64,000 nt of DNA from Alphaproteobacteria bacterium (GCA_015062545.1 SUUL01000002.1:19175-83174); one strand, 5' to 3'; shown: positions 3,462 through 60,203, numbered from the stretch's first letter. Numbers and translations are program-made. Notes: generated by a model not told the origin, from the sequence alone.

Positions 3462-4880
3462 TTATGCTTTTTTGACGATTTTATATCCGTCTTTGCCGTC
3501 CAGTATTGTCCAACCGGCGGCATCTATTTGTGCGCGCAAACTGTCTGCGGTTGCCCAATCCTTGGCGGCCTTGGCATCGGCACGGGCAGCAGCCATTGCA
3601 ACAATTTCGTCTGGGGCGGATTCTGATTCCAGTGCCACCAGTTTTTTTGCACGGTCAATAAATTGCAATCCCAACAGTCGGTCGATAAATTCAAATAACG
3701 CCAATTTTGTCGCAGGGTTAACAGTCGCGTCTTTTAATAATTCTTGAATAACGACCAATGATTCCGCAGTTTTGAAATTGTCTGATGCGGGTGCCAAAAT
3801 TTTATCGTGCCATGTGTTATAAGCACTGGAATCCAGTTCGCCAATATTGTCAGCGTTCATTAAATCTGCAATTTTACGAACAATATTTTTATATCCATTT
3901 GCCGCCGCATCCAATGATTCAAATGAAAATTCCAGTGGTTGGCGATAATGGCTTTGCAGTAATAAATATCTGTATGCCATTGGGTCATATCCGCGTTCAA
4001 CCAATGTACGTACAGTATATGCAGTCCCGGCAGATTTAGACATTTTACCATCTTTTAACAACAACCATTCGAAATGTGTCCAATATGAAACCCATGGCGC
4101 ACCGACCAATGGTTCGCTTTGGGCGATTTCGTTAGAGTGGTGTACTTTTGCGTGTTCTTGTCCCCCAACATGCAGGTCAAAATGTTTGCCCAGGTATTTC
4201 ATACTCATGGCGCTGCATTCAATGTGCCAGCCTGGGAATCCGACACCCCATGGACTGTCCCATTCCATTTGGCGTTTGGTGTCTGTGGGTGAAAATTTCC
4301 ATAATGCAAAGTCTGTTGAATTTCTTTTACCACTGTCATCAATGCGGGCACCACCACGTAATTCGGATAAATTTTGACCGCCCAATGCGCCGTATGCAGC
4401 AAATTTAGATGTGTCATAGTATATTCCATCGCCCGGGATTTCGTATGTGTACCCCAATGCTTCTAACTGTTTTACTTGTTCAATTTGTTCGGCAATGTGA
4501 TCTGTGGCGCGTGGCGTGTATGTTGGACGAATAATGTTTAACAAGTCAGAATCATGTAAAAAGTTGTCTATGTATTTTTGTGCAACATCCCATACAGACA
4601 GGTTTTCACGTGCAGCGCCCTTTTCCATTTTATCGTCACCTGTATCACCGTCACTGGTTAAATGACCAACGTCTGTAAAGTTCATAACATGTGTGACATC
4701 GTATCCATTTTCGATAAATACACGTTTGATAATATCACTGTTGACAATTGTACGCATATTGCCAATATGTGCATCCCAGTAAACCGTTGGACCGCATGTA
4801 TAAAACCCCATTTTTCCGGGTTGTAATGGTTTAAATTCTTCCAATTTTCTGGACATGGTATTGTATAATTTAATTATCAT
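3462..4880 (-). CDS. cysS: Cysteine--tRNA ligase
   Basis: 472 aa. HIGN (class I HIGH) and KMSKS motifs; N-terminus LYNTMSRKLEEFKP typical of CysS. Confidence 0.95.
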   Translation of the reverse strand: MIIKLYNTMSRKLEEFKPLQPGKMGFYTCGPTVYWDAHIGNMRTIVNSDIIKRVFIENGYDVTHVMNFTDVGHLTSDGDTGDDKMEKGAARENLSVWDVAQKYIDNFLHDSDLLNIIRPTYTPRATDHIAEQIEQVKQLEALGYTYEIPGDGIYYDTSKFAAYGALGGQNLSELRGGARIDDSGKRNSTDFALWKFSPTDTKRQMEWDSPWGVGFPGWHIECSAMSMKYLGKHFDLHVGGQEHAKVHHSNEIAQSEPLVGAPWVSYWTHFEWLLLKDGKMSKSAGTAYTVRTLVERGYDPMAYRYLLLQSHYRQPLEFSFESLDAAANGYKNIVRKIADLMNADNIGELDSSAYNTWHDKILAPASDNFKTAESLVVIQELLKDATVNPATKLALFEFIDRLLGLQFIDRAKKLVALESESAPDEIVAMAAARADAKAAKDWATADSLRAQIDAAGWTILDGKDGYKIVKKA

Positions 4881-5298: not shown

Positions 5299-6948
5299 TT
5301 ATTCACTGTACGGGCAGTATGGATTGAATTGATATATACCATGCAACCCCCTGAATTTGTGATCGATTGCGATATGACAGTCCGAGATCTTTGTAGCGGC
5401 CTGTGGACTGGTGGCAGGAACTGTAATTTTGCTGCCGCTGGCGCTTAGGGCTGTGTGCGAGGGGCAATCTTTACATTCTGTCTGTCCCACCTGGTTTTGA
5501 TATGAACCCGCTTCACAATTATAACAATAGTCCATCCCTTCGTCATATTGATAGGTACCCTTTGGGCAATCAAGACACATTCCGCGTTTATTATATTGCC
5601 CCGCAGGACACCAGTCGCTGCAATTCAAGTTATAATTATAACCGGCGGATAATTCTTCAAGAAAAGACCCAAGTGTGACATCAGAACCTTCAAAAAATTC
5701 AAGGATAGGTTCGTATGCATAACTCATACGTGTCAGATTATTATGACAGATTTCCACTTCTTCTTCATTTTCCCATTCCGACATATTGTCGCACGCCGTA
5801 TCTCTTAACGTGTAATAATCTTCATTGGGCGAATCGTTATACGCATCAATTAAATATTCCAACACGTCACAACTATGTACGGGTGTACAAACATCGCCAT
5901 ATTCATCATGCAGATATGCGTATGGGCCATAAGGATCATCACCGACCGCATCCAATGCCGCATTATATATTTCACAATTTTTGGCTATATTATAGTGGCA
6001 ATCATAAGCAACTTCAACATCTGGAATAACCCGCCTACAAATATCGTAATAATTGCTTTGATACATATTTTCATATGTATAACCACATGTAAGTGTATCC
6101 CCGGTATTACGATAATGTGCATACACGGCATCCATTACATCGCAGCGTGGTCCAGATACTGATGCCAAACATTCCGTTCCGTAACGGTAATCAGCATATA
6201 AAAATATTTGTGTTAAATCAGAATCCTCCCACTCTGAGTCATGACACAACGAACGTATATAAGATTCTTTATTGTTCAGAATCTCAGCGTAGCAATCGTC
6301 ATCCCCGCCACATGCCGCTTCTATCCCGGTATTCAAAAGTTCACCATCATCTGAACAATTGTAAACATACGTACCCGATTCATTAGCATCATTATGCGCT
6401 TCAACCAACGCTTGCAAATACGCACAATCAACACTCGTGCCAGTTCCACCCCACACACGAGGGGACGCAGTACAACTGTCACATACATATCTTGTGCCTT
6501 CCTCTTCCCAAGAATAATTAATTGAAGTACATTCATCGGGAAAATCATCCTCTGTCGTAGAACAAACATTATACCTGTCAATATACCCATAACTATTTTC
6601 TATACAGCATCGCGCGCATCGTGAATCTGGATTACAGTCGGGCACAACCTCGCACGAATTTGGATCGTCCGTACAATACCCATCGTAACACTCGCTTTCA
6701 CAATTCTCGCCATAATAATCTGACAAACCATTTTCATGGCAACAATACCCATAGTCAGCACCATCGCCGCCACCGCCACCAGGTTCAAGAATTTCAGAAC
6801 AATCGTTTTCTGGGTTCGACACACATTCATCCCAAGAATCGTACTGATTGCCCCACTGATCTTCGTATTCTTCTGCATACGATATGGTGGGGGTAATAAA
6901 AATTGTAAATAATGCAATAAGCGCAGAAAACAGCACAGTTTTTTTCAT
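5299..6948 (-). CDS. Secreted Cys/Asp/Tyr-rich protein with C-terminal ephrin-receptor-like (GCC2_GCC3) repeats, paralogue A
   Basis: 549 aa. Signal peptide MKKTVLFSALIALFTIFITPTISYA. CPKGTYQYDEGMDYCYNCEAGSYQNQVGQTECKDCP near the C-terminus. RBS GGAGAG upstream. Confidence 0.8.
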   Translation of the reverse strand: MKKTVLFSALIALFTIFITPTISYAEEYEDQWGNQYDSWDECVSNPENDCSEILEPGGGGGDGADYGYCCHENGLSDYYGENCESECYDGYCTDDPNSCEVVPDCNPDSRCARCCIENSYGYIDRYNVCSTTEDDFPDECTSINYSWEEEGTRYVCDSCTASPRVWGGTGTSVDCAYLQALVEAHNDANESGTYVYNCSDDGELLNTGIEAACGGDDDCYAEILNNKESYIRSLCHDSEWEDSDLTQIFLYADYRYGTECLASVSGPRCDVMDAVYAHYRNTGDTLTCGYTYENMYQSNYYDICRRVIPDVEVAYDCHYNIAKNCEIYNAALDAVGDDPYGPYAYLHDEYGDVCTPVHSCDVLEYLIDAYNDSPNEDYYTLRDTACDNMSEWENEEEVEICHNNLTRMSYAYEPILEFFEGSDVTLGSFLEELSAGYNYNLNCSDWCPAGQYNKRGMCLDCPKGTYQYDEGMDYCYNCEAGSYQNQVGQTECKDCPSHTALSASGSKITVPATSPQAATKISDCHIAIDHKFRGLHGIYQFNPYCPYSE

Positions 6949-6973: not shown

Positions 6974-7026
6974 TGCCTTATAAATGGTTTCTACGCCATG
7001 CCACGATAACACATCGTGACATGGTC
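6974..7026 (-). promoter_or_regulatory. Conserved 5' leader of the Cys-rich genes (dyad 6996-7024 plus GCGTAGAAACCAnTTATAAGGCA box)
   Basis: Part of a 104-nt block (6974-7077) repeated at 30018-30121. Substitutions within the dyad keep pairing on the minus-strand RNA. Confidence 0.6.
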
Positions 7027-7055
7027 ACTATAGTAAAATGCAGAATTTATTGCAA
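7027..7055 (-). promoter_or_regulatory. Sigma-70-type promoter of Cys-rich gene A
   Basis: Minus strand reads TTGCAA-17 nt-TATAGT. The same hexamers and spacing occur at 30071-30099. Confidence 0.6.
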
Positions 7056-7138
7056 CAGCAAAAATAGGTATTTTTTATGCTTTTTTTATGTGCGTATAAA
7101 TGGTAATTTTTTATGTGAAAAATTATGAAAATTTGGAT

Positions 7139-7167
7139 AAAAAAATCCCCACGCAGGTGGGGATTTT
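7139..7167 (-). terminator. Terminator of the cold-shock gene
   Basis: AAAATCCCC-8 nt-GGGGATTTT with a 7-A run on the plus strand (U-run on the minus strand). Confidence 0.7.
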
Positions 7168-7186
7168 AGCAATAGTTTTATAAAAA

Positions 7187-7528
7187 TTATTTCTTCCAAA
7201 AGGCAAAACCACGACGTGCAGATTTTTCTTCACGTTGTTTTCTGTCTTCGGCAGCGCGTCTGCGTTCGGCACGGCGTTCTTGAAAACGGCGCGCGGATTC
7301 TTCGTCACGCTGAACAACAGCGATTGTTGTTGCAGATAATTTACCATTGCGAACTTCTTCTTCAAATTCAACAATGTCATTTTCATTCAAAAATCTGATG
7401 CCGGCAGCCTTTAATGAACTGGAATGAACAAATACATCATCTGTGTTACCTTCTGCGTTTGGTGTATCAGGACTGATGAAACCAAAACACTTCTTGCCAT
7501 TATACCATTTTACTTTTCCTTGACGCAT
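7187..7528 (-). CDS. Cold-shock domain protein with Arg/Glu-rich C-terminal tail
   Basis: GKVKWYNGKKCFGFISPD and DVFVHSSSL (RNP1/RNP2-like CSD motifs). 45-aa basic tail RRFQERRAERRRAAEDRKQREEK. Confidence 0.9.
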   Translation of the reverse strand: MRQGKVKWYNGKKCFGFISPDTPNAEGNTDDVFVHSSSLKAAGIRFLNENDIVEFEEEVRNGKLSATTIAVVQRDEESARRFQERRAERRRAAEDRKQREEKSARRGFAFWKK

Positions 7529-7623
7529 AATCCTATCCTTTCCTTATGCAAGTTATGGTCCCGAGAGACACGTTCAGAACCTGATATAATTTTGACATTT
7601 TTATCAAATTATTGCAAGGGGAA

Positions 7624-21926: not shown

Positions 21927-22032
21927 GTATAAAAATCCTTGATTTTATAAACTTTTTAAGTAATAATATGCCCCGCACAGCACCCTTGGAGGCTGTGAAA
22001 GTAAGTAAAACATGCTATAAAAGGATATAAAA

Positions 22033-26528: not shown

Positions 26529-26591
26529 AAATCCCCCATCCGGGCCCCGCGCAAATATTTATTTGCGTGGGTGGACATAGGGGGATTTTTT
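26529..26591 (+). terminator. Long compound terminator hairpin after rne
   Basis: AAATCCCCCAT...CGCGCAAAT-ATTT-ATTTGCGTG...ATAGGGGGATTTTTT. Confidence 0.7.
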
Positions 26592-26668
26592 GTCATTACT
26601 GCGCCCGGGTCCTGCCGCCGCAGGCGGTAACAAGAATCACAGATTCGTGTAAAAATATTGGCAGAGAA

Positions 26669-26696
26669 CCCCTGCCCCCTTGTGGGGCGGGTTTTT
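26669..26696 (+). terminator. Second plus-strand terminator (tandem terminator or 3' end of a small RNA)
   Basis: CCCCTGCCCC-CTTGT-GGGGCGGG followed by TTTTT. There is no U-run on the minus strand. Confidence 0.55.
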
Positions 26697-26734
26697 ATTC
26701 ACATGTGTTTTTACAAAACATGTCAATGTTTTGT

Positions 26735-26764
26735 AAAATTAAAATCCCCCATGTGGGGGATTTT
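26735..26764 (-). terminator. Terminator of Cys-rich gene B (paralogous to 5276-5298)
   Basis: AAAATCCCCC-ATGT-GGGGGATTTT directly after the stop. An AT hairpin TTACAAAACAT/ATGTTTTGTAA lies just downstream at 26711-26736. Confidence 0.65.
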
Positions 26765-26765
26765 T

Positions 26766-29700
26766 TTATTTACTGTACGAACAACTGGGGTTAAATTTGT
26801 ACGTACCATGTCCACCCTTGAAACTGTAAGTGGATGGAATTTTGCACGCGCCAATATCGGTGGATGCGGTTGATTCCGTTGTACCATATACCGTTACATT
26901 GGTGGTGCTTTTTACACCGTATGCCGGACAATCTTTGCACGATGTTTTTCCTGTTTCATCTTGATAGTCGCCCACCGAGCATGCCTGTTTAGCATACGTA
27001 CCATTCCAACCTTCTTGCGAGAAATTTGTCAGCCCATAATACCCCTTTGGCACCGGTGTGTCACAGCGCATCATATCAATCGCACGGGCGGATATTGTGC
27101 TTTCACATGAATACACATACCCGTCCAGTTCGTCTGACCAGTCAGAGCCATTACATTCCTGTTCAAAATCATACGGATAGTAAAAATCCAATCCGACCAA
27201 ACAATTCCCGTCTGCATCATAATCTGCGCAATCAGTTTGATCCCACGATGAATAATAAACACACAATGGGCGACCCAGACTGTCAAAACCATATCCATTA
27301 CAGTCATAATCAGCGTAGTTGCCATCTTGGAATTTTGCACCCGATGCATCGTAATATCCACCGCCACATTCCAAGGCATTGTATGTACAATCCCAATTTT
27401 TGAAATCATCTGCTAATTCGCATTTCAAATCATAGATTTTCAGCCCCGCGTTTTCAATGGTATCATACGTATGGGCGCACTTTGTACTGCCCGGGGTCCA
27501 ATTTACAAAGTCTTCATACTTGGACGTTGGTAATTCGCAGTCATAGCATTGTCCATGCTTATTATATTGCCTTTCGCCACATGAATCGGCACATGTTAAC
27601 CCAATACGGTTACGAAAATTTTGTAATGTGGTGCTATAATCTTCCCTCATGTCATCATACCAATAATTCATACATCTTTCTTCAAATTCATAACGATCTC
27701 CAGGATAGACAACAAAGTTTAAATTATACTTGCATCTGTAATAATCTGCAGTACCAGGTTGATATGCATCCCCACATATTTCGTCAAGATTGCAATAGTT
27801 ACTATCCTCGTAATCAGAACCTGATTTGGTCATGTAATTATACCATACGTCTGCGAATTCACAGTTGTCATCCGCAACATCATCAATATGTTCCCCGTTA
27901 TAGCATCCCAAATATGTTGCAATATTATTCTCGTCGTACCAATCGCCATTATACAGCTCATTATAATCTTCGCAATTCAGCAATACGCGCGATATTGTCA
28001 GTGGGTCACTGTACGCTTCATTAAAATTACGATAATTGCACGCCGCATCGGTATAGCCATGTTCATCTATCTCATTAAACAGATGTTCGTAATTACACAA
28101 TGGTTTACAGTTTATGCCCAGTTCGTTTGCAGCCTTGTCCAACCAATACGACATCCGGTCAGAGTTTTGCAACTCATTTTCACCGATTTCATCCCAAAAA
28201 CTGTCGACCACATTCATGTATGCATCAACACGACCAGAATCGACCGCGTCTTGCAATGCTTTGTTCAGGTATTTTTGTGTATCGCTTGGGTATTTACTGA
28301 AACTGCCATAACATTCTGTTTCGTCGGTTTCTTCGTTTGCAGAACAAGTTATAGTATCGCTACCATTATAATAACTGTTTAAAAAACCTGCCAGTAAAAC
28401 GCAATTATAACCATCTGTACGTGTTGTATCAAAATAACATGACATGCCATTTGCCGCCAATAAATCTTGTGCATCAAAATTATTAAAATACCCTCCAGTA
28501 CAATCTATATCTATGTAATTTACTATCGCGTTACATGTGGATGTGCCATTTAACGCCTTGATACATTTGTTATATGCCACTGTACCAGATGCACCAAACT
28601 GGGAACAAACGTCTGACAATGCACCATTTTCCCCGTCTTCACATGGTGAAGCACAACTGTCAGTGTTATAATAATCAAATGCCGCCTTCAGATAACTACA
28701 TTCTTCATCATTCGTTGGACAGTTGTTTGCCATATAATCGCTTATATAATTCCTAACCGTTGAAGCGGCCGCTTCTTCATCCCCACCGTTTGTGTTGTAT
28801 TCGCTGTCCAACGCGGCAAGTATTTTTTTACAATGTTCAGATTCATTTTCAGATACATAGTCTTCACAATCGGAATCACCTTCACAGGTGTAGTAAGCAT
28901 CATTGAGACAAAATTCATTTCTGCGTTCAGAAATATCGCTGTATTCATCTTCATAGTAGCCCGGTCCCCACCAAGCATCAATAACCACATTGGCATAGTT
29001 GTCAGAACACTCAATATCGCCCAACAGCCCAGCAATTGGTACATAACACGATGCACCATATTGTTCGTTCGCATACATATTAACATCGGTCAGATTCAAG
29101 GTTGTGCCGGTATCTTCTCCTCCCCATACGCCTCGTATGATACTTGAATACGCACATGCGTTAATCTGCATATGGTTTTGACATTCCAAATCGTCCGATT
29201 CGCAGACTTTTAAAAACGATGGGGAATACTCGCCACAATCACTAGTGTCCACATAAATTGTGCCCAGATTTACACCAACCACAAAATTCTTTAAATAGTC
29301 ACAATTAATTTCAAAATCATGTCCCCCACAGTCCACACACATATCTGTTGCACACCTTCCGCTGCCTTCATCACCAGTGGTACATGAGTACGCCCATCCA
29401 TATTCGTCATAGACCGTTAAACCGAGACAGTCGTTCTGATCCACCACTTCTTCCGCTGCACACGGGTCGGATGTATCATAATCGGAACCGGGTTCTGAAT
29501 CGCATACTTCTTCCCAAGATGCACCTTGACCACACCAACCATCAAAACATTCATCGTTACAGCTGGACAGACTGGTAAATTCGCCCATATTGGTACCACA
29601 ACAGTAAAAGTAGCCATCAGCATCGCTGCCGCTATCTTCTTCATCATCCCAACCTTCACCCACACTGCCGCCAACACCTTCGCAACCGCCGGCAAGGCCA

Positions 29701-29870
29701 GATGACGCGTCAGACTCGCAATCTTCTTTGGAACCGTATATTTGCCCAGTCCAGTTTACCCACACATCACAATCCCCCGTATCTTCACAAGCGTACGATA
29801 CGGTTGGAGTCAAAACAGCCGGCACAAAAACAACAAACAACGATAATGCAAAAATAATCAGTTTCTTCAT
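26766..29870 (-). CDS. Secreted Cys/Asp/Tyr-rich protein with ephrin-receptor-like repeats, expanded paralogue B
   Basis: 1034 aa. Signal peptide MKKLIIFALSLFVVFVPAVLTPTVSYA. N-terminal block DADGYFYCCGTNMGEF...CNDECFDGWC and C-terminal CSVGDYQDETGKTSCKDCP...GGHGTYKFNPSCSYSK are homologous to gene A. Confidence 0.8.
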   Translation of the reverse strand: MKKLIIFALSLFVVFVPAVLTPTVSYACEDTGDCDVWVNWTGQIYGSKEDCESDASSGLAGGCEGVGGSVGEGWDDEEDSGSDADGYFYCCGTNMGEFTSLSSCNDECFDGWCGQGASWEEVCDSEPGSDYDTSDPCAAEEVVDQNDCLGLTVYDEYGWAYSCTTGDEGSGRCATDMCVDCGGHDFEINCDYLKNFVVGVNLGTIYVDTSDCGEYSPSFLKVCESDDLECQNHMQINACAYSSIIRGVWGGEDTGTTLNLTDVNMYANEQYGASCYVPIAGLLGDIECSDNYANVVIDAWWGPGYYEDEYSDISERRNEFCLNDAYYTCEGDSDCEDYVSENESEHCKKILAALDSEYNTNGGDEEAAASTVRNYISDYMANNCPTNDEECSYLKAAFDYYNTDSCASPCEDGENGALSDVCSQFGASGTVAYNKCIKALNGTSTCNAIVNYIDIDCTGGYFNNFDAQDLLAANGMSCYFDTTRTDGYNCVLLAGFLNSYYNGSDTITCSANEETDETECYGSFSKYPSDTQKYLNKALQDAVDSGRVDAYMNVVDSFWDEIGENELQNSDRMSYWLDKAANELGINCKPLCNYEHLFNEIDEHGYTDAACNYRNFNEAYSDPLTISRVLLNCEDYNELYNGDWYDENNIATYLGCYNGEHIDDVADDNCEFADVWYNYMTKSGSDYEDSNYCNLDEICGDAYQPGTADYYRCKYNLNFVVYPGDRYEFEERCMNYWYDDMREDYSTTLQNFRNRIGLTCADSCGERQYNKHGQCYDCELPTSKYEDFVNWTPGSTKCAHTYDTIENAGLKIYDLKCELADDFKNWDCTYNALECGGGYYDASGAKFQDGNYADYDCNGYGFDSLGRPLCVYYSSWDQTDCADYDADGNCLVGLDFYYPYDFEQECNGSDWSDELDGYVYSCESTISARAIDMMRCDTPVPKGYYGLTNFSQEGWNGTYAKQACSVGDYQDETGKTSCKDCPAYGVKSTTNVTVYGTTESTASTDIGACKIPSTYSFKGGHGTYKFNPSCSYSK

Positions 29871-29895
29871 TCCCCTTTCCCCCTGTTCAGGTAAT

Positions 29896-29998
29896 AAAAA
29901 ACCGCAATATTTTATTAAAGCGGTTGGAGGTTAGAAACTACTATAAGGAATAGCGGGCTTATTCAATTTATTCACCACCCTCCAACCCGTGGTTGGAG
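29896..29998 (-). promoter_or_regulatory. Attenuator-like insert in the leader of Cys-rich gene B
   Basis: On minus-strand RNA: CUCCAACC-ACG-GGUUGGAG hairpin. The alternative pairing is GGUUGGAGG with CCUCCAACC 48 nt downstream. Terminator-like AACCGC-14 nt-GCGGUU-UUUU shares AACC with that alternative helix. Confidence 0.45.
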
Positions 29999-30017
29999 TG
30001 ATTTTCATCAATTCTGA

Positions 30018-30070
30018 TGCCTTATAAGTGGTTTCTACGCCACATCATGACAACTCATCATGACATGATC
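30018..30070 (-). promoter_or_regulatory. Conserved 5' leader, copy B (dyad 30040-30068)
   Basis: Same 104-nt block as 6974-7077, at a constant offset. Confidence 0.6.
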
Positions 30071-30099
30071 ACTATAGTAAAATGCAAAATTTATTGCAA
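30071..30099 (-). promoter_or_regulatory. Sigma-70-type promoter of Cys-rich gene B
   Basis: Minus strand reads TTGCAA-17 nt-TATAGT. Confidence 0.6.
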
Positions 30100-30273
30100 C
30101 AGCAAAAATAGGTATTTTTTAGTAAAATAAACATAAACAAAATTTTTGCGAAAAAAAATTGTAAAATATACCGCTGCTGTTTCCTGCGCCCGGGGGATTA
30201 ACGGTCAATGGTTAAATAATATCAGTAAATAAAAATTTTATATTATGTAATATGAAGTTTCTTAAAAACATAT

Positions 30274-30298
30274 ATAAAATCCCGCCTGATGGCGGGAT
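30274..30298 (-). terminator. Terminator after rpsD
   Basis: AATCCCGCC-TGAT-GGCGGGATT with a U-run on the minus strand. Confidence 0.7.
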
Positions 30299-30317
30299 TC
30301 TTCTTTTCCCCGTTCTA

Positions 30318-31100: not shown

Positions 31101-31709
31101 TTATTCGTGTTGACCACGCATGGCCGCATTAAATCTGGCCCTTTGCGTTTCTGTCAACTTTCTGATTTTATCCGTAAATTCTTGTGATCCTCTAAATTCA
31201 ACAACAGGATGACCACCATAACCAGGTCTGTGATATATACGCATATCGTGATTTTCTGGATCACAGAACGTATAGGCAATTTCTTTATATTCAGGATCTG
31301 TATCCACTAATGATGTTTCTTCATACTGAACCAAATTACGTGCAATAATATCATGTGTCACAGACTCTAGCGTGGCTGGCTTTAATCGTTTGGTTGCATC
31401 ATTTAATTTTTCTGCAGTCGTCTTGTTTGTTTTGGCTTCATAAAACTGCTGTGCCTGCGTTTGATGCTGATGCTCTACCGCTTTCCAGGTATCATCAGAC
31501 AAACGGAATCGCACACCTGCAGCCCCGCCCATTCCCGGCTTGTGAAAGATTTCAATATCCCCACCATGTGGACTAGCAAACGTCCATTCTTCTCCCTCTT
31601 CTAAAATATCGTCAGTATCTTGTGATGTTTTTAATGTATAGTTTATAATGTTCTGTTCCGCCAGCTTTAAAACCAACTGTTCCAGTGTTTGCTGTTGTTT
31701 TTCTGCCAT
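31101..31709 (-). CDS. Hypothetical protein built from two copies of a ~80-aa module
   Basis: WTFASPHGGDIEIFHKPGMGGAAGVRFR aligns with YTFCDPENHDMRIYHRPGYGGHPVVEFR. Confidence 0.6.
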   Translation of the reverse strand: MAEKQQQTLEQLVLKLAEQNIINYTLKTSQDTDDILEEGEEWTFASPHGGDIEIFHKPGMGGAAGVRFRLSDDTWKAVEHQHQTQAQQFYEAKTNKTTAEKLNDATKRLKPATLESVTHDIIARNLVQYEETSLVDTDPEYKEIAYTFCDPENHDMRIYHRPGYGGHPVVEFRGSQEFTDKIRKLTETQRARFNAAMRGQHE

Positions 31710-40990: not shown

Positions 40991-41869
40991 ATGCCGGCAA
41001 AAAATAAAAACGTTGCGCGCGAATGGTTTAATACAATATTTTATGGCGCACTTATCGCTATTGTTTTTCGCAGCTTCTTGCTTGAACCATTTAATATACC
41101 ATCCGGATCAATGATACCTTCGTTGCATGTGGGCGACCATATCTTCGTTACCAAGTGGTCTTATGGGTATTCGCGTTATTCTTTCCCATTTGGTTCTTGG
41201 AAGATGTGGAATGGACGTTTCTGGGCAACAGAACCAGAAGTGGGCGATGTCGTTGTATTCCGCAACCCAATCAATGAATCACAAGATTATGTCAAAAGAC
41301 TGATTGGCAAGCCAGGCGATAAAATCCAGATGATTAATGGTCGATTACATATAAATGGACAGCAGGTTCAACGCGACAACCCACAACCGTATGTCTGGGC
41401 CGTGTTGCCAAAATCCATGCGTGGGGTCGGATATTACAAAGACAATATGTCAATCAAGGGAAATAAAATATGGGTGGATAACGAACCCGCACCATATAAT
41501 TATACCGTTGAATACAAGCCTGATAATTTCTGCAATATGTATGTTGGGGTGTGTGATGTGTTCCATGGCACAGAATATACAGAAACATTGCCAAACGGTG
41601 TAAAACACAGTATCGTTGAATTTGCAGATGATGCATACTTTGACAACACCGAAGCATTTGTCGTGCCAGATAACCACTTCTTCTTTATGGGCGACAATCG
41701 CGACAACAGTGGCGACAGTCGTGGCGAAGTTGGATTTGTACCACGTGATAATGTCTTGGGAAAAGTATGGTTTATATGGTACTCGCATAACTACTATGCG
41801 CCGATGTTGGCAATATGGTCATGGGGCAACAAAATGCGTTGGAACAGATTTGGAATGGGTGTAAATTAA
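40991..41869 (+). CDS. lepB: Signal peptidase I
   Basis: PSGSMIPSL (catalytic Ser), YVKRLIGKPGD (Lys box), GDNRDNSGDSR. Confidence 0.93.
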   Translation: MPAKNKNVAREWFNTIFYGALIAIVFRSFLLEPFNIPSGSMIPSLHVGDHIFVTKWSYGYSRYSFPFGSWKMWNGRFWATEPEVGDVVVFRNPINESQDYVKRLIGKPGDKIQMINGRLHINGQQVQRDNPQPYVWAVLPKSMRGVGYYKDNMSIKGNKIWVDNEPAPYNYTVEYKPDNFCNMYVGVCDVFHGTEYTETLPNGVKHSIVEFADDAYFDNTEAFVVPDNHFFFMGDNRDNSGDSRGEVGFVPRDNVLGKVWFIWYSHNYYAPMLAIWSWGNKMRWNRFGMGVN

Positions 41870-46042: not shown

Positions 46043-46070
46043 AAAACCGCCATTTTGGCGGTTTTTTTTT
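46043..46070. terminator. Bidirectional terminator
   Basis: AAAACCGCC-ATTTT-GGCGGTTTT followed by T-run. Confidence 0.7.
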
Positions 46071-47034
46071 AGAATTCAAAACGCAATCCCAACATCGCAT
46101 TTGTATATATCATATTCTCTGCCTTGAAATATTCGCGGTGACGGGTGCCATCCTCGTTCGATAATTCCCATTTTATACGTGGCAGATATATCATGCGAAC
46201 CCCAAAATCCAAAAACATGTTTTCAGCGATACCATACGAAAACCCGACAGCCAATATACCCGCAACATTTGATGACGTTGTTTCTGATTTGTAAAAATTC
46301 AAAACCTTGTTTTCATCCAGTTCACCATACGGGTACAAATCGTATTGCACCGACAAATCACCATACGGGTCAGACAAATTCAATACCGTCTTGGAATCAG
46401 CATACCCCAACCCCACGCCAATGTATGGAATAAATGTTTCAATCGGCTTTTGCAGACCGTCAAAGAAATCATAATATGCCATCGCACTGATTATATCTGT
46501 GGTAACGGTGGAATTAACGGCACCACTTTGTACCGAAACAGTAACATCTTCGGCACCACCATACAACTGCAAATCGCCATCAAACATTGGGGATGCGTTA
46601 TAGTCTGTTTTTGCAACATGGTCCCAACCGGCTTCGATACGCCATTGCGGACGGTATGGCAATGTCCAACCAATACTGGCACCGGCGGCAAATGCGTACC
46701 CTTTGAAATCTTTGGATGGCGAAATTTTATCCAAATCACCATATCCAGCCAATTCATACCCTTCGCAGTTATTTTTATTTGCACAATAGCCCGGTGCCAC
46801 AATTACGCCTGTTTCAGGTTCGTAAAAATATGGGTTAACCAGCGCACCAACCTGGTTCTTAATCGAACCAAAACCAAAGGATGCACCACCACGTCCAGAT
46901 ATTACAAAACGCGCACCATCATCTTCGTACCAACCGTCACCAACATACGTTCCGGGATACTGCCAATTTGCAAGGGCCGGCGCACCAACCAGGCACGACA
47001 AAACCGATAAAATATAAAAATTTCTTTTTCTCAT
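46069..47034 (-). CDS. Outer-membrane beta-barrel protein
   Basis: Signal peptide ...LVGAPALA, alternating aromatic beta-strand pattern, C-terminal LGLRFEF. Confidence 0.75.
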   Translation of the reverse strand: MRKRNFYILSVLSCLVGAPALANWQYPGTYVGDGWYEDDGARFVISGRGGASFGFGSIKNQVGALVNPYFYEPETGVIVAPGYCANKNNCEGYELAGYGDLDKISPSKDFKGYAFAAGASIGWTLPYRPQWRIEAGWDHVAKTDYNASPMFDGDLQLYGGAEDVTVSVQSGAVNSTVTTDIISAMAYYDFFDGLQKPIETFIPYIGVGLGYADSKTVLNLSDPYGDLSVQYDLYPYGELDENKVLNFYKSETTSSNVAGILAVGFSYGIAENMFLDFGVRMIYLPRIKWELSNEDGTRHREYFKAENMIYTNAMLGLRFEF

Positions 47035-53930: not shown

Positions 53931-54078
53931 CTTGTCCCCGTTAAAATCTGAAAATTTTATACAAAATCAAATATGACAATAAAACCAATAGGAATTTTAT
54001 CGCATTTTTATTTATACTCCGTTTTTTTTAACTACGACTACACCCTAGCAATTATATTGATGACAGTCAACATTTATA

Positions 54079-54107
54079 TTGATTTTTTTATGTTTTTATG
54101 GTATAAT
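54079..54107 (+). promoter_or_regulatory. Strong sigma-70 promoter with extended -10
   Basis: TTGATT-17 nt (ending TGG)-TATAAT. Confidence 0.6.
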
Positions 54108-54147
54108 TTAGTGTGAATTGGCAGGCATTTCGTCTGTCTTTTTTATT

Positions 54148-54179
54148 GCCCCGATATGTTCGGGGCTTTCTTTCGTTTT
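54148..54179 (+). promoter_or_regulatory. Terminator-like hairpin inside the leader of the tail-fibre-like gene
   Basis: GCCCCGA-TATGT-TCGGGGC followed by TTTCTTTCGTTTT, ending 24 nt before the start codon. Confidence 0.45.
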
Positions 54180-54202
54180 ATATAAAACCAAAAGGAAAAA
54201 AC

Positions 54203-55015
54203 ATGAATAAAATTACTTATTTTGGCGATGGGCAAAGTATGGATTTTGCGTTTTCATTTAATTTCTTTCAAACGTCAGATATTTATGTTAAAATAAACGG
54301 AACACCGCAAACGTCCGGATACACATTGACGTGTATTAACAGCACAACACCTGCAGATATACCATACGTTGGGGGAACTATTTCTTTTAACACGCCACCT
54401 AAATCAACAGATATAATAACAATATATCGTAAAATAGAATTAACGCGTGTCGTGGATTATCAACAAACAGAAAAAATAAACCCAGAAACACTTAATCAAG
54501 ATTTTAATTATCTGATGGAGGTTATCAAAGATTGCGACTGTGCAATCAATGATTTTACAGAAAAATATGCTGATTTATGCAAATTGCCACAGGTATCACA
54601 AATAAATGAAAAACTGAACAAAGTGCAATCAAGCTTGGATAATTGCGCACAAAAAACAGATATAAACGCACTGCAAGACGCGACTGGTTTTACCAACAAA
54701 GGCACAACGGCCATTGCAAATATGGCAATGCCATCTAATCAATATACGGAATTGACACTGGGTGCAGACGGCACAACATATACCGCACCAGCAGATGGAT
54801 ATTTTTATATCGCAAAAATATCCACCGCAGCCGGTCAACGTATCGGATTATTAGAACCTTCGGGTGGGCCAGGCACGATGATTTATTCAACAGATACAGG
54901 TCAAACACTGATGGTGTTTTTGCCTGCACGAAAAAATCAAACTGTCCAACTAAGATATACGTTGGGTGGCACAACAAATGTCTTCAAGTTTATATACGCC
55001 AATGGTGCAAAATAA
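54203..55015 (+). CDS. Phage T7-type tail-fibre-like protein (N-terminal adaptor domain, coiled coil, beta-rich tip)
   Basis: Start trimmed to MNKITYFGDGQSMDFAFSFNFF after RBS AAAGGAAAAA. ...ITIYRKIELTRVVDYQQTEKINPETLNQDFNYLMEVIKD follows the tail-fibre N-domain pattern. Confidence 0.6.
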   Translation: MNKITYFGDGQSMDFAFSFNFFQTSDIYVKINGTPQTSGYTLTCINSTTPADIPYVGGTISFNTPPKSTDIITIYRKIELTRVVDYQQTEKINPETLNQDFNYLMEVIKDCDCAINDFTEKYADLCKLPQVSQINEKLNKVQSSLDNCAQKTDINALQDATGFTNKGTTAIANMAMPSNQYTELTLGADGTTYTAPADGYFYIAKISTAAGQRIGLLEPSGGPGTMIYSTDTGQTLMVFLPARKNQTVQLRYTLGGTTNVFKFIYANGAK

Positions 55016-55033
55016 CAAAAAAAGGAAATTAAA

Positions 55034-55219
55034 ATGTTTTTAGGAATACAAGATGGACTTATTGCTGTGGTCGCACAAACACGCGCAGAAATAGAAAACA
55101 TGCCCTGTATGATTTTTACAGAAATCATAGAAACTAACCAACCTGTCGAAATGGTAAATTGTAAATACTATGTAGGAACAAATAATATTCAAGATGCAAA
55201 AATGGGGCTGACTGAATAA
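55034..55219 (+). CDS. Small hypothetical protein downstream of the tail-fibre-like gene
   Basis: 61 aa, RBS AAAAGGAAA, 18 nt after the preceding stop. Confidence 0.45.
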   Translation: MFLGIQDGLIAVVAQTRAEIENMPCMIFTEIIETNQPVEMVNCKYYVGTNNIQDAKMGLTE

Positions 55220-55246
55220 AAATCCCCCATTTTTGGGGGATTTTTA
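55218..55246. terminator. Bidirectional terminator
   Basis: AAAATCCCCC-ATTTTT-GGGGGATTTT. Confidence 0.7.
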
Positions 55247-55247
55247 T

Positions 55248-56201
55248 TCACCGTTTGGAATTAAACCAGTCAACGAATGTCGCAATACCTGTTTGGAAAT
55301 TCGTATTTGGGTTGTATCCAAGTAATTTATGAGCCTTGGACCAATCGCACACCGTTTTATCAACGTCACCAGGCTGCATCGGCATTTGTTCAATAATTGC
55401 ATCAGTGCCGATCGTCTGTTCAATGGTGTGAATCATATCACGTAATGTAATTGGTTCGCCGCCCCCCAGATTTATTATCTCAAATCCTGTTTTATCGTAA
55501 TCAATCGCTGCACAAATTCCAGACAATATATCCGATATGAACGTATAATCACGCTTGGTAGAGCCATCGCCATACATATGAATCGCCTGATGATTTTTTA
55601 TCATCTTGGCAAATTTATGTATCGCTAAATCCGGTCTTTGGCGCGGCCCATATACTGTAAAGAAACGTAATGCAACAACTGATATGCCGTACAAGTGATG
55701 CCACGTGTATAATAATTGCTCGCATGCAGATTTTGTTGCCGCATATGGCGATATAGGTTCTGTGACTTTCAAATCTTCACTAAAAATATCTTCGGGACAA
55801 TTACCATACACTGACGAAGATGATGCAAACACAATCTTGTTAATATTCTTTGCACGCATACATTCCAGGATATTTACAGTTCCCATAATGTTTGTCTTGA
55901 CATATTCTATGGGCTTTTCCAAAGAAGGACGAACGCCCGCACGTGCCGCCAAATGTACAACAACATCGATGTTATTTTCATTAAAGATGTGCTGTAAAGA
56001 TTCTAAATCTTCAATATCTGTACGATACAGTTTATAGCGTGAATTGCCCAAATTGTGCGCAACATTGTTTTCTTTTATTGAAACATCGTAATAATCATTA
56101 AAATTATCTACAACGATAACCGTATGATTTTCTGATAATAATTTATCCGCCAATGACGATCCGATAAATCCAGCCCCACCAGTAATTAAAATATTCATCA
56201 T
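55248..56201 (-). CDS. NAD-dependent nucleotide-sugar epimerase (UDP-glucuronate 4-epimerase-like)
   Basis: ILITGGAGFIGSSL; SSSSVYG; YAATK (Y-x3-K). Confidence 0.85.
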   Translation of the reverse strand: MMNILITGGAGFIGSSLADKLLSENHTVIVVDNFNDYYDVSIKENNVAHNLGNSRYKLYRTDIEDLESLQHIFNENNIDVVVHLAARAGVRPSLEKPIEYVKTNIMGTVNILECMRAKNINKIVFASSSSVYGNCPEDIFSEDLKVTEPISPYAATKSACEQLLYTWHHLYGISVVALRFFTVYGPRQRPDLAIHKFAKMIKNHQAIHMYGDGSTKRDYTFISDILSGICAAIDYDKTGFEIINLGGGEPITLRDMIHTIEQTIGTDAIIEQMPMQPGDVDKTVCDWSKAHKLLGYNPNTNFQTGIATFVDWFNSKR

Positions 56202-56209
56202 GTCCCCCT

Positions 56210-59164
56210 TTACCTACAAAACTTCCAGTTTTCAAAATCTAATCTTGTCATGTATTCGTCATCCAAATAATCCAGATGACGTAAGATATAATTCACATCG
56301 TATTCGTAGTTGTCTTTCAGATACGAAATTAAACGATACGTATTTGGAGAGTATTTCATCGTATGACCACATACCGTAAAATTTTTAACCTTTAATAGTG
56401 GGCAACGCTGATTTAACAAGTCAATCGGATCGCTGGATGCCAAGAATTCGGGTTTGATATAAGTATCGTATGTAAAACCATATCGCGATAATAGACCCGT
56501 TAATCTGTATTCGTATTTCTTGACAATGTCACTACGAACCTTTTCAACTTTGACGTTTTTCAGAAAATCTGTGAACGCGTATGACGTAAATACATCACGT
56601 GACAAGACGACAAAGTATGACTGAATATGTGTCCCTTCCCTGACGCGATTATTTTGGGTACAACCCCAGAAATCAACATTGCGTCTTTCCATTTCATTGA
56701 ACATATTTTCCAATGGAAATATCGGCCCATAACAAGAATCATTCGCCAATATGATGCCGTCATATTTATACAAGTCTTCGTATGAAAAACGTCCAAATAA
56801 TTTAGACCATGAACCAAAATCATACATTTTGTGCCGCTCGGCACCGGCGAATTTCACAAAATCAGATATTTTTGCCAATTCGCCTCGCTTCATTTGACAA
56901 TCTGCGAAATAATGCACTTCAGCGATTTTTGATAAGTGTCGAATATAATTTATCGCATAATCTTCCATTTTGCCTTTGGCACTGTATCCCGCGAATAAAC
57001 ATAAATAACGTTTTTTATTATTTGGTTTTTTTATGACAGAATTATGTCTGAACACCCTGAAATCTTTATACGATTGTCGGGTATTTATGATAAAGTGCGA
57101 CTTGATATCAGATATGCGATGCTTCCAAAATAGATACATTAAACTTAACTGATCACGGGCGCAGAATTTTGTCAACATATACCACCAATCATTCATTATT
57201 CTGCGCAGAACCATGTTTTTATGATTTCTGTAGAGAATGTTGTTTTCACCAAGTCCCCACCCCTCGGGGAAACCTTCTTTGCGTAACTTGCTCATTAATA
57301 CGTTAACGGTTGCTGGGTTTACCAGTTTCAAGTTTTTTATCTCCGCTGCTTCGGAATAAATGCATTTTCTGCCAAAATGTTGCGGTAATAAAAATGCTTT
57401 TTGCTTGGCCGCAACAGCATCAAAAATATAAGAAGACAATACGTTTATGTTAGAATCTATATAGATACTTTCATTATATTCTTTCAGACAAATATGTGGA
57501 AACACCTTGTGCCATCTGTTGTTCAAAGATGGATTTAACTTATTATAAACCAAGGGTCTGATTTCCCAAATACCAACACGTTGTTTGGCAATTAAGTCTG
57601 TATTGTCTGTAAAACATATATAATCGTATGTGTTGTCAATATAATAGTGAGAAATCAAATCATCATAGTTGCCAGTTATACATGTATATACCGCCCTTTT
57701 AGATTTCCTGGTATCACGAATTTGCCAATATTCTTTAATCTTTTTATTACTTGGTTTGTATAAGTTTTCCTGAACAGTATAGCCACTGCTGCTGCCAGAC
57801 AATAAAAAGTGCAACAAGGGACACATATTAACATGTTTGTATAAAGATAAATATTCATCATTATTAAAGAATTTGGATGGATTATGCCCCAACTGCCAGC
57901 CAACTTGGATATAAAAATCCAGCAAATCATCTGACTTTACGTTATACTTCTTGTAATACTTAGAATCCCACATGCCAGAATCTAACAGCAACTGTTTCTG
58001 AGAGAGATACGTTTTGGTATCTATCTTTTTTACCCTTGATTCATACCATGAAATTATGCATCCATACAAATCCTTGTTATGTTTTCTTAGGAATTCTAGC
58101 AAATGGTTTGGGCAGTCTGCTGCAGTGCTAGACCAGCCACGATTTAACGCCTTGATTTTAACCAGTGGAAAAGAAAACTTCTTAATCAAATATAACGGAT
58201 AAACTGTCTTATTCAGACGCGGTAACGGAATATCCGCAGAATTTACATACGTTTTATACACAAACCCAGCTTCAACAAAATACTTGGTCGTTCCCAATTC
58301 ATAACAACGTATAACCTCTTCAACAGATTTTTGCTTCTTGACGCTGGCAAAAAAATCATAAAAACATTTGTTTTTTAATACATTAGACTTAAAACACATG
58401 AAATATGATTGAACATGCGGAGATAAATCTTGATTGTCCAACACACCCCAGAAATCGCACTTCTTTGTGCGCATTATATTAAACATATCCACAAAAGAAC
58501 CACCAACGGGCCCAAAACAACTGTCGTTACACAATATTAAGCTGGAAATTTTGTCCAAAGCCTGTTTTCTGGCCAAATATAAAACACCACGTTTGTATGA
58601 CCCAAAATCATATTCGCCATGACGTTTACACACAGCATATGTACAATACGGCTTGATTTTATCCATTTCAGATGCAAAAACGGGATTGTCCGCAATAAAA
58701 ATAATGTTGTCTGTGACCGCCTTTAATTTTTCTAAATAGTATACAACATAATCAGGAATAATGCCGTCTGTAAAAAACGATGCAAAAATTGCCACTTTGC
58801 CGTTTTTCTTGATTTTGTTGCCAGATACAAAAGTCTTATTGGTTGCACCTTTTGGAAAAACATTGGTACAACTGTCAACGCACGCAATAAGTTTTAATGG
58901 GCGATTTTCTTTTTTTCCGAATTTTTCATAATGATATAATGGGCATATATCGGCCGCTTTAACGTCTGGATTGCACCTTAGGTATTCATCACCGTTAAAT
59001 GTGGCACACGGATTGCGCGATTCACGCCACCCATATTGTAAATAGTGTTGAACTGGATCCATCTTGGCGGCAGCAACATCGGGGTATGTTTTGAGATACC
59101 ATCTTTTGTTAAAGAATTTTGACTTCTTTATAGTTTTATATTCTTTTGTTGCCCGATTATGCAT
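56210..59164 (-). CDS. Triple-domain polysaccharide biosynthesis protein: RgpF-like, DUF616-like glycosyltransferase, RgpF-like
   Basis: 984 aa. RgpF motifs occur twice (HGEYDFGSYK/NDSCFGP/DFWG/HVQSYF and HKMYDFGSWS/NDSCYGP/DFWG/HIQSYF). The central region carries YTCITGNYDDL...RDQLSLMY. Confidence 0.8.
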   Translation of the reverse strand: MHNRATKEYKTIKKSKFFNKRWYLKTYPDVAAAKMDPVQHYLQYGWRESRNPCATFNGDEYLRCNPDVKAADICPLYHYEKFGKKENRPLKLIACVDSCTNVFPKGATNKTFVSGNKIKKNGKVAIFASFFTDGIIPDYVVYYLEKLKAVTDNIIFIADNPVFASEMDKIKPYCTYAVCKRHGEYDFGSYKRGVLYLARKQALDKISSLILCNDSCFGPVGGSFVDMFNIMRTKKCDFWGVLDNQDLSPHVQSYFMCFKSNVLKNKCFYDFFASVKKQKSVEEVIRCYELGTTKYFVEAGFVYKTYVNSADIPLPRLNKTVYPLYLIKKFSFPLVKIKALNRGWSSTAADCPNHLLEFLRKHNKDLYGCIISWYESRVKKIDTKTYLSQKQLLLDSGMWDSKYYKKYNVKSDDLLDFYIQVGWQLGHNPSKFFNNDEYLSLYKHVNMCPLLHFLLSGSSSGYTVQENLYKPSNKKIKEYWQIRDTRKSKRAVYTCITGNYDDLISHYYIDNTYDYICFTDNTDLIAKQRVGIWEIRPLVYNKLNPSLNNRWHKVFPHICLKEYNESIYIDSNINVLSSYIFDAVAAKQKAFLLPQHFGRKCIYSEAAEIKNLKLVNPATVNVLMSKLRKEGFPEGWGLGENNILYRNHKNMVLRRIMNDWWYMLTKFCARDQLSLMYLFWKHRISDIKSHFIINTRQSYKDFRVFRHNSVIKKPNNKKRYLCLFAGYSAKGKMEDYAINYIRHLSKIAEVHYFADCQMKRGELAKISDFVKFAGAERHKMYDFGSWSKLFGRFSYEDLYKYDGIILANDSCYGPIFPLENMFNEMERRNVDFWGCTQNNRVREGTHIQSYFVVLSRDVFTSYAFTDFLKNVKVEKVRSDIVKKYEYRLTGLLSRYGFTYDTYIKPEFLASSDPIDLLNQRCPLLKVKNFTVCGHTMKYSPNTYRLISYLKDNYEYDVNYILRHLDYLDDEYMTRLDFENWKFCR

Positions 59165-59185
59165 TCTACATCCCTATTTTCACGA

Positions 59186-60118: not shown

Positions 60119-60203
60119 ATTGCCTATGCCCCCGCGTTGATATTGTTCTGCTTATGTACTGCAAAATGTCAATAAAGTCAACGACATTTTCACTGCACAA
60201 GAC

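Follow-up and report, generated by a model that had tools for sequence, protein, structure and literature searches.

Apparent whole-domain replacement on a conserved cysteine scaffold in an exported two-gene family of an uncultured gut alphaproteobacterium

What sort of protein is encoded by a long, cysteine-rich open reading frame (ORF) of an uncultured gut bacterium, and how does it come to differ so much between strains? The question is raised by a 64-kb stretch of DNA (64,000 nucleotides, here the window) from an Alphaproteobacteria bacterium (GCA_015062545.1 SUUL01000002.1:19175-83174), in which gene B, a complete ORF of 1034 amino acids plus stop, lies at 26766-29870 on the minus strand, and gene A, a 549-residue paralogue, lies at 5299-6948 on the same strand. 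The initial annotation of gene B confirms well as to the ORF itself, and the peptides it quoted are all present where it placed them. It went on to propose that the middle of the protein is an array of degenerate modules, each a cysteine followed by an amphipathic helix, gained and lost between fixed termini as in variable surface antigen families. What we find is a real, exported, cysteine-rich and lineage-restricted two-gene family that is non-repetitive save for its C-terminal ephrin-receptor-like units. Its variation, as read from the alleles, takes the form of whole-domain replacement by recombination that preserves the scaffold, with raised protein-level change throughout.

The comparison is based on four gene B alleles, P0001 (window), P0002 (contig L001, GCA_045593615.1), P0003 and P0007, and on two gene A alleles, the second being P0005. 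L001 is from the same species as the window, with 97-98.4% DNA identity in the flanks, and the RNase E/G, RNase PH, LPG synthase and L25 proteins of the two are 99.5-100% identical, against 62% for gene B. Within gene B, the first ~278 and the last ~277 codons have a DNA identity of 94-95% and an amino acid identity of 89-90%, while codons ~279-757 have no DNA similarity save 206 bp at 68%, and the amino acid identity of this middle is 32%. Nonsynonymous (dN) and synonymous (dS) divergence between the two strains was obtained by the Nei-Gojobori method. Flanking genes have dS of 0.015-0.14 with dN no higher than 0.002 (dN/dS 0-0.15), the gene B N-domain has dS 0.088 and dN 0.043 (dN/dS 0.48), and the C-terminal part has dS 0.068 and dN 0.052 (dN/dS 0.76), with amino acid change in the gene B ends running 20-50 times faster than in the neighboring genes. 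The middle has dN 0.56 and a dS of ~2, which is saturated, so that the contrast of dN/dS between termini and middle that had been suggested gives usable values for the ends but an unreliable one for the middle. A saturated dS in the middle against low dS at the ends points to a middle drawn from an allelic lineage much older than that of the rest of the locus.

Among the four alleles, relationships differ from segment to segment, which requires recombination. In the N segment, P0001 is 90% identical to P0002 and 52% to P0003, and P0003 is 34% identical to P0007, so that the N-domain goes from 90% identity with the same-species allele to 34-52% among the others. In the middle, the same three pairs stand at 32%, 49%, and 47% overall, the last figure including a block at 85%, and in the C segment they stand at 89%, 53%, and 87%. 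The breakpoints, at codons ~279 and ~757, match the borders of the homology blocks shared by A and B, which identifies whole domains as the units of exchange. Gene A varies in its N-domain: compared with the orthologue on contig L093, whose flanks are 98.6% identical, codons ~27-263 have no DNA similarity and the rest of the gene is 89% identical.

What does not vary is the framework. The middle is 458-476 amino acids long with 27-29 Cys in all four gene B alleles, no indel is longer than 14 residues, and 21 of 34 Cys columns in the middle are invariant. These figures contradict gain and loss of modules and the length polymorphism expected from it. Nor are the termini fixed, given the 34% identity of the N-domains of P0003 and P0007 and the exchanged N-domain of gene A; consistent conservation is limited to the signal peptide and the ephrin-like module at the C-terminus. 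The proposed resemblance to variable surface antigens holds insofar as the middle is replaced between strains of one species, but the picture has to be corrected from a change in repeat number to a scaffold-preserving replacement of domains.

The objective is then to clarify whether the middle has any repeats at all. BLASTP of the protein against itself returns no off-diagonal high-scoring segment at E ≤ 10. When the four-allele profile is compared with itself by hhalign, the strongest off-diagonal match has a probability of 1.6% (P = 0.033), the shallow alignments (Neff 1.7) restricting the power of the comparison. Smith-Waterman self-alignments of the middles are within the shuffle range, with 4 of 60 and 10 of 60 shuffles matching the observed score, and the mean hydrophobicity profile downstream of Cys is flat. 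The whole-protein Smith-Waterman self-alignment does score above global shuffles (z ~3.4-4.3), but we rejected this excess as evidence of repeats, the traceback being protein-length, gappy, and of low identity, as is typical of a composition biased to D, Y, and C. A loose motif, C-x2-h-x2-h-h, where h is hydrophobic, exceeds shuffles two- to four-fold (P 0.0015-0.05 in the B alleles), with 6 observed against 2.0 expected in gene B (P ~0.015) and 3 against 1.1 in gene A (P ~0.1). Since the sites are orthologous in all alleles, the counts per allele are not independent. This loose motif, with an anchor-residue control in which Cys precedes the helix pattern no oftener than Ile or Leu, was used instead of a strict regular expression, which was discarded as circular because its pattern came from the initial annotation's own examples.

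The AlphaFold2 models were made from only 6 sequences and have predicted local distance difference test (pLDDT) scores of 41.5 for B and 38.7 for A. Only their secondary structure was used, since fold matches to models of such low pLDDT would be meaningless. At this low confidence, both proteins are predicted to have an all-helical middle and ends of beta and coil, with helices starting at C190, C347, C391, C446, C490, and C670 in B and at C175, C269, and C360 in A.

A model of degenerate Cys-helix modules gained and lost between fixed termini can thus call on quoted strings that exist, on predicted helices that begin at the quoted Cys in both proteins, and on a motif about three-fold over shuffles in the B alleles. 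It can also call on a 14-residue insertion specific to P0002 (GWCIEDNIDDFADY) that resembles such a unit, and on a B middle three times as long as that of A. We nevertheless consider it improbable, and at the level of sequence largely refuted: there is no off-diagonal similarity, only ~6 of the 35 middle Cys carry the motif and Cys is not favored over Ile or Leu as its anchor, the alleles agree in length and Cys number with an N-terminus that is not fixed, and hhalign detects no homology between the A middle (268-399) and the B middle (probability 0.3%). The simplest reading is that the middle is a non-repetitive helical domain with Cys on buried helix faces, where disulfides would staple it, and that the strings taken for modules, real as they are, are conserved scaffold islands of that domain, ordinary amphipathic helices and not a repeat family. 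The C-terminal ephrin-receptor-like units are the only genuine repeats in A and B.

The relation of A to B frames the rest of the architecture. BLASTP aligns the two in three significant blocks, the C-terminus (E = 4e-15), the N-terminus at 1-286 (E = 4e-7), and a QYNK box (E = 3e-5), and hhalign pairs A31-266 with B39-281 (probability 95.5%), A420-468 with B743-785 (77%), and A462-549 with B941-1034 (97.4%). Alignments so far above the low-complexity level indicate true paralogues. The shared N-terminal block noted initially is present, but it is a domain of ~250 residues, larger than the short block claimed. In gene B, this N-domain (residues 28-280, nt 29031-29789, minus strand) corresponds to A31-266 and has 22 Cys in predicted beta and coil followed by helices. 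Next comes the hypervariable middle (residues 281-756, nt 27603-29030, minus strand), the allelic cassette, delimited by allele comparison and predicted by low-confidence AlphaFold2 secondary structure (DSSP) to be all-alpha with Cys on helix faces.

The QYNK box, residues 757-785 (nt 27516-27602, minus strand), is found by BLASTP, hhalign, and its directly legible Cys pattern to be the first ephrin-receptor-like repeat, C764-x10-C775-x2-C778, spelled C764-GERQYNKHGQ-C775-YD-C778. The C-terminal module, residues 936-1034 (nt 26769-27065, minus strand), has the other, C964-SVGDYQDETGKTS-C978-KD-C981, followed by a tail with the conserved pattern F-[KR]-G-x-[HN]-G-x-Y-x-F-x-P-x-C-x-Y. The ephrin-like repeat placed at nt 26925-27065 by the initial annotation is confirmed there as C936-P982, but the QYNK box, which was listed as a separate feature, is by the common spacing C-x2-G-x-[YF]-x5-8-C-x2-C a unit of the same kind, three of which stand consecutively in gene A at residues 447-495. 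Between the two units of B there is a B-specific conserved insert, residues 786-935 (nt 27066-27515, minus strand), recognized from alignments by CAHTY..LKCELADD..NALECGGGY..ISARAIDM, with no Pfam match and with 75-93% identity within each of the allele pairs P0001/P0002 and P0003/P0007; in its place gene A has its second ephrin-like repeat. The extra length of B, which had been assigned to the middle, is partly there, but this second insertion of ~150 residues lies within the repeat array, hence not all of the extra length is in the middle.

Gene A, for its part, has a signal peptide at 1-25, the N-domain at 26-266, a helical middle at 267-419, and three tandem ephrin-like repeats with the tail at 420-549. 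Ephrin_rec_like (PF07699) is the sole Pfam match in either protein, scoring 32.5 bits over 3 stretches in A, above the gathering threshold of 23.1, and 19.5 bits (E = 8.4e-4) in B, below that threshold. The repeats cover ~5-20% of the proteins. A separate observation on gene A is that the L093 orthologue has a frameshift at ~4330-4420, after ...YAHYRNTG, leaving ORFs of 358 and 244 amino acids; a pseudogene, phase variation, and an error of assembly are all possible explanations.

Gene B is a real gene, as judged by its intact ORFs, a sigma70-like promoter of its own, and its conserved Cys columns. The ORF is uninterrupted at 1017, 1008, and 1001 amino acids in the other strains, so that ORFs of 1001-1034 residues are intact in four alleles despite identities of 32-68%. 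The product has 69 Cys (6.7%), 18% D+E, and 5% K+R; gene A has 41 Cys (7.5%), every other window ORF of at least 200 residues has 2.8% Cys or less, and the two are the sole Cys-rich and strongly acidic ORFs of the window.

Both proteins share, as first noted, the same style of signal peptide, in which MKK precedes a hydrophobic core that leads into TPT[VI]SYA, and which is of the signal peptidase I type. In gene B, it was read from the sequence as residues 1-27 (nt 29790-29870, minus strand), ending in TPTVSYA with cleavage after SYA, and the TPT[VIA]SYA ending is kept in six of six aligned family members. A putative LepB-like ORF, recognized by its N-terminal sequence, lies at 40991-41869. 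A lipoprotein was considered and rejected, since S/Y at -3/-2 is unlike the lipobox [LVI][ASTVI][GAS]C and a Cys at +1 is not invariant: SYA is followed by Cys in P0001 and P0002 (V-S-Y-A-C), by Y in P0003, by E in A, and by SC in P0007. Autotransporter, type I secretion, and other known export classes were rejected as well, as Pfam and NCBIfam at E ≤ 1 yield Ephrin_rec_like only, with no C-terminal barrel, RTX repeats, or sorting domain. NCBIfam by itself gives no match to either product, and the family profile has no match at E ≤ 10 among PDB sequences.

How widely is the family distributed? Indexed searches of 5.8e9 proteins returned B itself, P0002, P0003, A itself, and P0005 only, and an exhaustive hidden Markov model (HMM) search of 1.84e9 representative proteins with the N-domain and middle added only P0007, for 4 representatives in total. 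Patterns from the family alignment matched 19 stretches in 185,579 species-representative genomes, none of which was confirmed, and in 12 of 12 sibling Enterousia species the family is not found beside RNase E/G. Two further searches are uninformative: the pattern scans of metagenome collections missed even contigs known to carry P0001, and the indexed search with the C-terminal profile did not recover the family itself. The family is thus lineage-restricted: its six known members, of which four are B and two are A, come from two sister species. The further members sought did turn up (P0002, P0003, P0007, and P0005), those of B without the length polymorphism predicted of modules.

As to the host, Candidatus Enterousia and its order Rs-D84 are widespread, uncultured animal-gut bacteria thought to live off other cells, and to our knowledge nothing is known of how they contact a partner. 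The RNase E/G next to gene B is 85-96% identical to those of metagenome-assembled genomes from the guts of yak, goat, deer, and other animals, which are labeled either Candidatus Enterousia or uncultured Alphaproteobacteria. Enterousia genomes are under 1 Mb and lack respiration and pathways for making amino acids, nucleotides, or fatty acids, and the bacteria have been proposed to be obligately partner-dependent (PMC12306168).

Putting these together, we infer, at about even odds (roughly 0.5), that the product of gene B serves a partner-dependent symbiont in contact or recognition outside the cell, and that selection imposed by the partner, by host immunity, or by phages has diversified it. 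The exported, acidic, disulfide-rich product would consist of the N-domain, a long all-helical middle stapled by its conserved Cys, and a C-terminal stalk of ephrin-receptor-like repeats. It would be exposed outside the cell, where it would contact or recognize the partner or host cell on which the bacterium depends, or would itself be what host immunity or phages act on. Domain cassettes of ancient divergence would be kept in circulation in the population by diversifying or balancing selection. What the alleles themselves show is that whole domains are replaced between them by homologous recombination at the domain borders, and that the sequence between cysteines turns over while the Cys scaffold and domain lengths are kept. 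A more specific proposal adds that the family is a hitherto undescribed type of variable contact protein in bacteria, that the stapled helical domain, carried on a eukaryote-like ephrin-type stalk, is what recognizes the host or partner, that ancient cassettes under balancing selection are shuffled at domain borders, and that the paralogues are co-regulated through their promoter-leader; in that detail, the proposal is tentative and rather unlikely to hold as a whole.

Several points weigh against a surface recognition role under diversifying selection. Pfam and NCBIfam scans recognize neither an outer-membrane anchor nor a lipobox, and no autotransporter barrel or secretion signal either, so that the protein could stay periplasmic, and the unusable AlphaFold2 models say nothing on the fold. 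Every gene B segment has a dN/dS below 1, made unreliable in the middle by the saturated dS, which falls short of proof of positive selection and would fit relaxed constraint with recombination as well. The P0001 allele is identical on at least 23 metagenome contigs, which gives no sign of programmed or rapid switching within a population. The allele sample is small, with four of B and two of A, and the reading offers no account of how 69 Cys become oxidized in an anaerobe without a respiratory chain.

Some of these points lend themselves to a different account, in which gene B encodes a structural protein of the envelope or periplasm under weak constraint. The mosaicism would then come from neutral drift and from now and then recombining with related species, at a locus prone to it, instead of from selection on an exposed surface that binds a ligand. 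It agrees with dN/dS below 1 in all segments, with the absence of a detected surface anchor or secretion signal, with the invariance of one allele across its contigs, and with an unstable locus, where the gene is inverted in the sister species, not found in 12 sibling species, and near other indels. Drift, however, cannot saturate dS in an internal 1.4-kb segment while the ends and flanks stay below 0.14; such a segment requires import or the long-term maintenance of old alleles. Moreover, two unlinked paralogues undergo the same domain-wise replacement, the Cys scaffold and domain length are strictly kept, and a genome of less than 1 Mb (PMC12306168) keeps 1.6 kb and 3.1 kb of such genes intact. 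We regard weak constraint as an unlikely explanation, if one to be reckoned with. Still less can be said for a secreted effector or polymorphic-toxin-like protein directed at competitors or eukaryotic cells, with the ephrin-like repeats mimicking eukaryotic surface proteins. The product is secreted and variable, Ephrin_rec_like repeats are mainly eukaryotic, and the sole match of gene A outside the family (P0006) has many of them. Yet Pfam and NCBIfam find no toxin or enzyme domain, there is no sequence relative in PDB, the variable part is internal or N-terminal instead of a C-terminal toxin tip, and the neighbors are RNase E/G and rpsD, with no small immunity-like gene or secretion-system genes adjacent, which makes the effector highly improbable.

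Polymorphic toxin systems as a class were set aside because the C-terminus is the most conserved part and the downstream neighbor is the convergent RNase E/G gene. A diversity-generating retroelement target was also rejected, there being no second DNA copy of B in the window and the 1.4-kb divergence with indels being unlike adenine-specific mutagenesis, although no search was aimed at a reverse transcriptase.

Returning to the preferred reading of a diversified recognition protein, a close comparison is with mosaic, recombining surface proteins such as pneumococcal PspA/CbpA, Neisseria Opa/TbpB, and the mosaic adhesin alleles of Helicobacter and Streptococcus. A and B resemble these in the incongruent relationships of their segments and in divergence far above that of the flanking core genes, and gene B, like them, has conserved ends with exchange of internal domains by homologous recombination. 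Unlike them, the family shares no sequence or domain homology and has a cysteine-stapled scaffold, which is unusual for bacterial surface proteins; the host is an uncultured gut symbiont with a reduced genome. Cassette systems of antigenic variation, as in Anaplasma Msp2/P44, Borrelia VlsE, and Neisseria PilE/pilS, have a hypervariable center between conserved ends, as gene B does in the comparison of window and L001. They differ in having silent donors: tblastn and blastn find no silent cassettes or second DNA copies of A or B in the 64-kb window, only the two genes, and variation of the silent-cassette kind was rejected on that count, to which the constancy of P0001 can be added.

Giardia variant-specific surface proteins and the immobilization antigens of ciliates are Cys-rich, variable surface proteins in which ephrin- or furin-like repeat matches are common. 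Compared by Pfam only, they are like gene B in being very rich in Cys, containing CxxC, varying, and coming from anaerobic gut organisms. CxxC repeats make up nearly the whole of them, and their anchor is transmembrane or glycosylphosphatidylinositol, whereas the bulk of gene B is non-repetitive and helical with no anchor seen. PF07699 repeats themselves (Ephrin_rec_like, or GCC2_GCC3) are mostly eukaryotic. The C-terminal units of A and B have the C-x2-G-x-Y-x5-8-C-x2-C spacing of that family, and those of B are homologous to those of A, but the host is bacterial, and the N-domain, the helical middle, and the insert at 786-935 belong to no known family. An orphan N-domain joined to a Cys-stapled helical cassette and ephrin-like repeats is an undescribed architecture in an Rs-D84 symbiont. 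Since mosaic variable surface proteins are already well known, the novelty is in the architecture and the lineage and not in any new principle.

Genes B (3.1 kb) and A (1.65 kb) encode secreted, Cys-rich proteins, are kept intact in a tiny genome, and have domains swapped between strains ~98% identical. This makes them strong candidates for forming the interface of the interaction, or for being what pressure from host or phage chiefly acts on. They also offer a handle for identifying the partner, by pull-downs or the binding of labeled protein, and for strain typing in metagenomes.

The locus itself also varies. Gene B lies between RNase E/G, with which it is convergent, and rpsD. In the sister species that carries P0003 and P0007, with flanks 80-92% identical, gene B is inverted together with its promoter in the same RNase E/G-rpsD gap, as seen in L090, L091, and L092 against window 26538-30317. 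The sister species is also without a hypothetical ORF of 202 amino acids that the window has at 31101-31709, between rpsD and a PHP-domain gene.

Upstream of gene B, a promoter scan finds an element at 30018-30121 (minus strand) with TTGCAA-17-TATAGT (30071-30099) followed by a 13-bp hairpin. A copy is upstream of gene A at 6974-7077 (minus strand), the two being 104 bp long and 90% identical. Outside the window, the element occurs at L090 491-587, L091 3134-3230, and L093 3270-3373, and it is present upstream of P0003 and P0007. Four copies retain the hairpin, in which one pair change is compensatory (UA to CG) and several others are G-U-compatible, which suggests a common promoter with a 5' stem-loop or operator that would co-regulate the family; RpoD is encoded in the window. 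Adjoining the gene A promoter on its upstream side, between gene A and an ORF of 468 amino acids, is a cold-shock-domain protein (113 aa, PF00313 CSD, with a basic C-terminal extension) at 7100-7530 on the minus strand.

Between its promoter element and its ATG, gene B has a specific 5' leader of ~147 nt (29871-30017, minus strand), in which GGUUGGAGG and CCUCCAACC may form a stem among alternative pairings, and in which a terminator-like hairpin with a U-run lies ~25 nt before the ATG. The leader at 29914-29987 aligns with the full Rfam model RF02221 (sRNA-Xcc1) at 35.2 bits, below the gathering threshold of 53, with E from ~5e-5 to 2e-4. This part of the leader might be a mobile element, leader or attenuator, that goes with genes for secreted proteins. 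A copy, 85% identical, is at L001 9473-9582, upstream of an unrelated ORF of 306 amino acids with a signal peptide. That ORF, with no recorded Pfam match, is encoded in a ~1.37-kb insertion (L001 8306-9678) relative to the window (~21931-21937), just past the L25 gene, on its far side from RNase PH, and constitutes a second strain-variable locus for a secreted protein.

In sibling Enterousia species, other large Cys-rich ORFs (6.5-8%) are found near RNase E/G. They contain CEPCPxG-type repeats in tandem, have a common ...CNPGYKMW C-terminus, and lie at L012 7860-10331 (minus), L021 6511-9435 (minus), L015 7937-9040 (plus), and L016 1482-2981 (plus). They were rejected as relatives, the family HMM showing no homology beyond CPxG-type repeats, and it seems that the Cys-repeat proteins encoded at this variable RNase E/G locus are diverse across the genus.

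Elsewhere in the window, a protein of 321 amino acids with a signal peptide (46069-47034, minus strand) contains ANWQYPGTYVGDGWY and has no Pfam match. It is conserved between species, with a homologue at L011 11406-12383 (minus strand) that ends in an aromatic residue, and it looks like a candidate outer-membrane beta-barrel or porin. The block at 54000-60200 has a low GC content (35-38%) and includes a fusion of 984 amino acids with an RgpF/TOD1-type glycosyltransferase (56210-59164) and neighboring ORFs; the block is most likely a surface-polysaccharide locus and may have been acquired horizontally.

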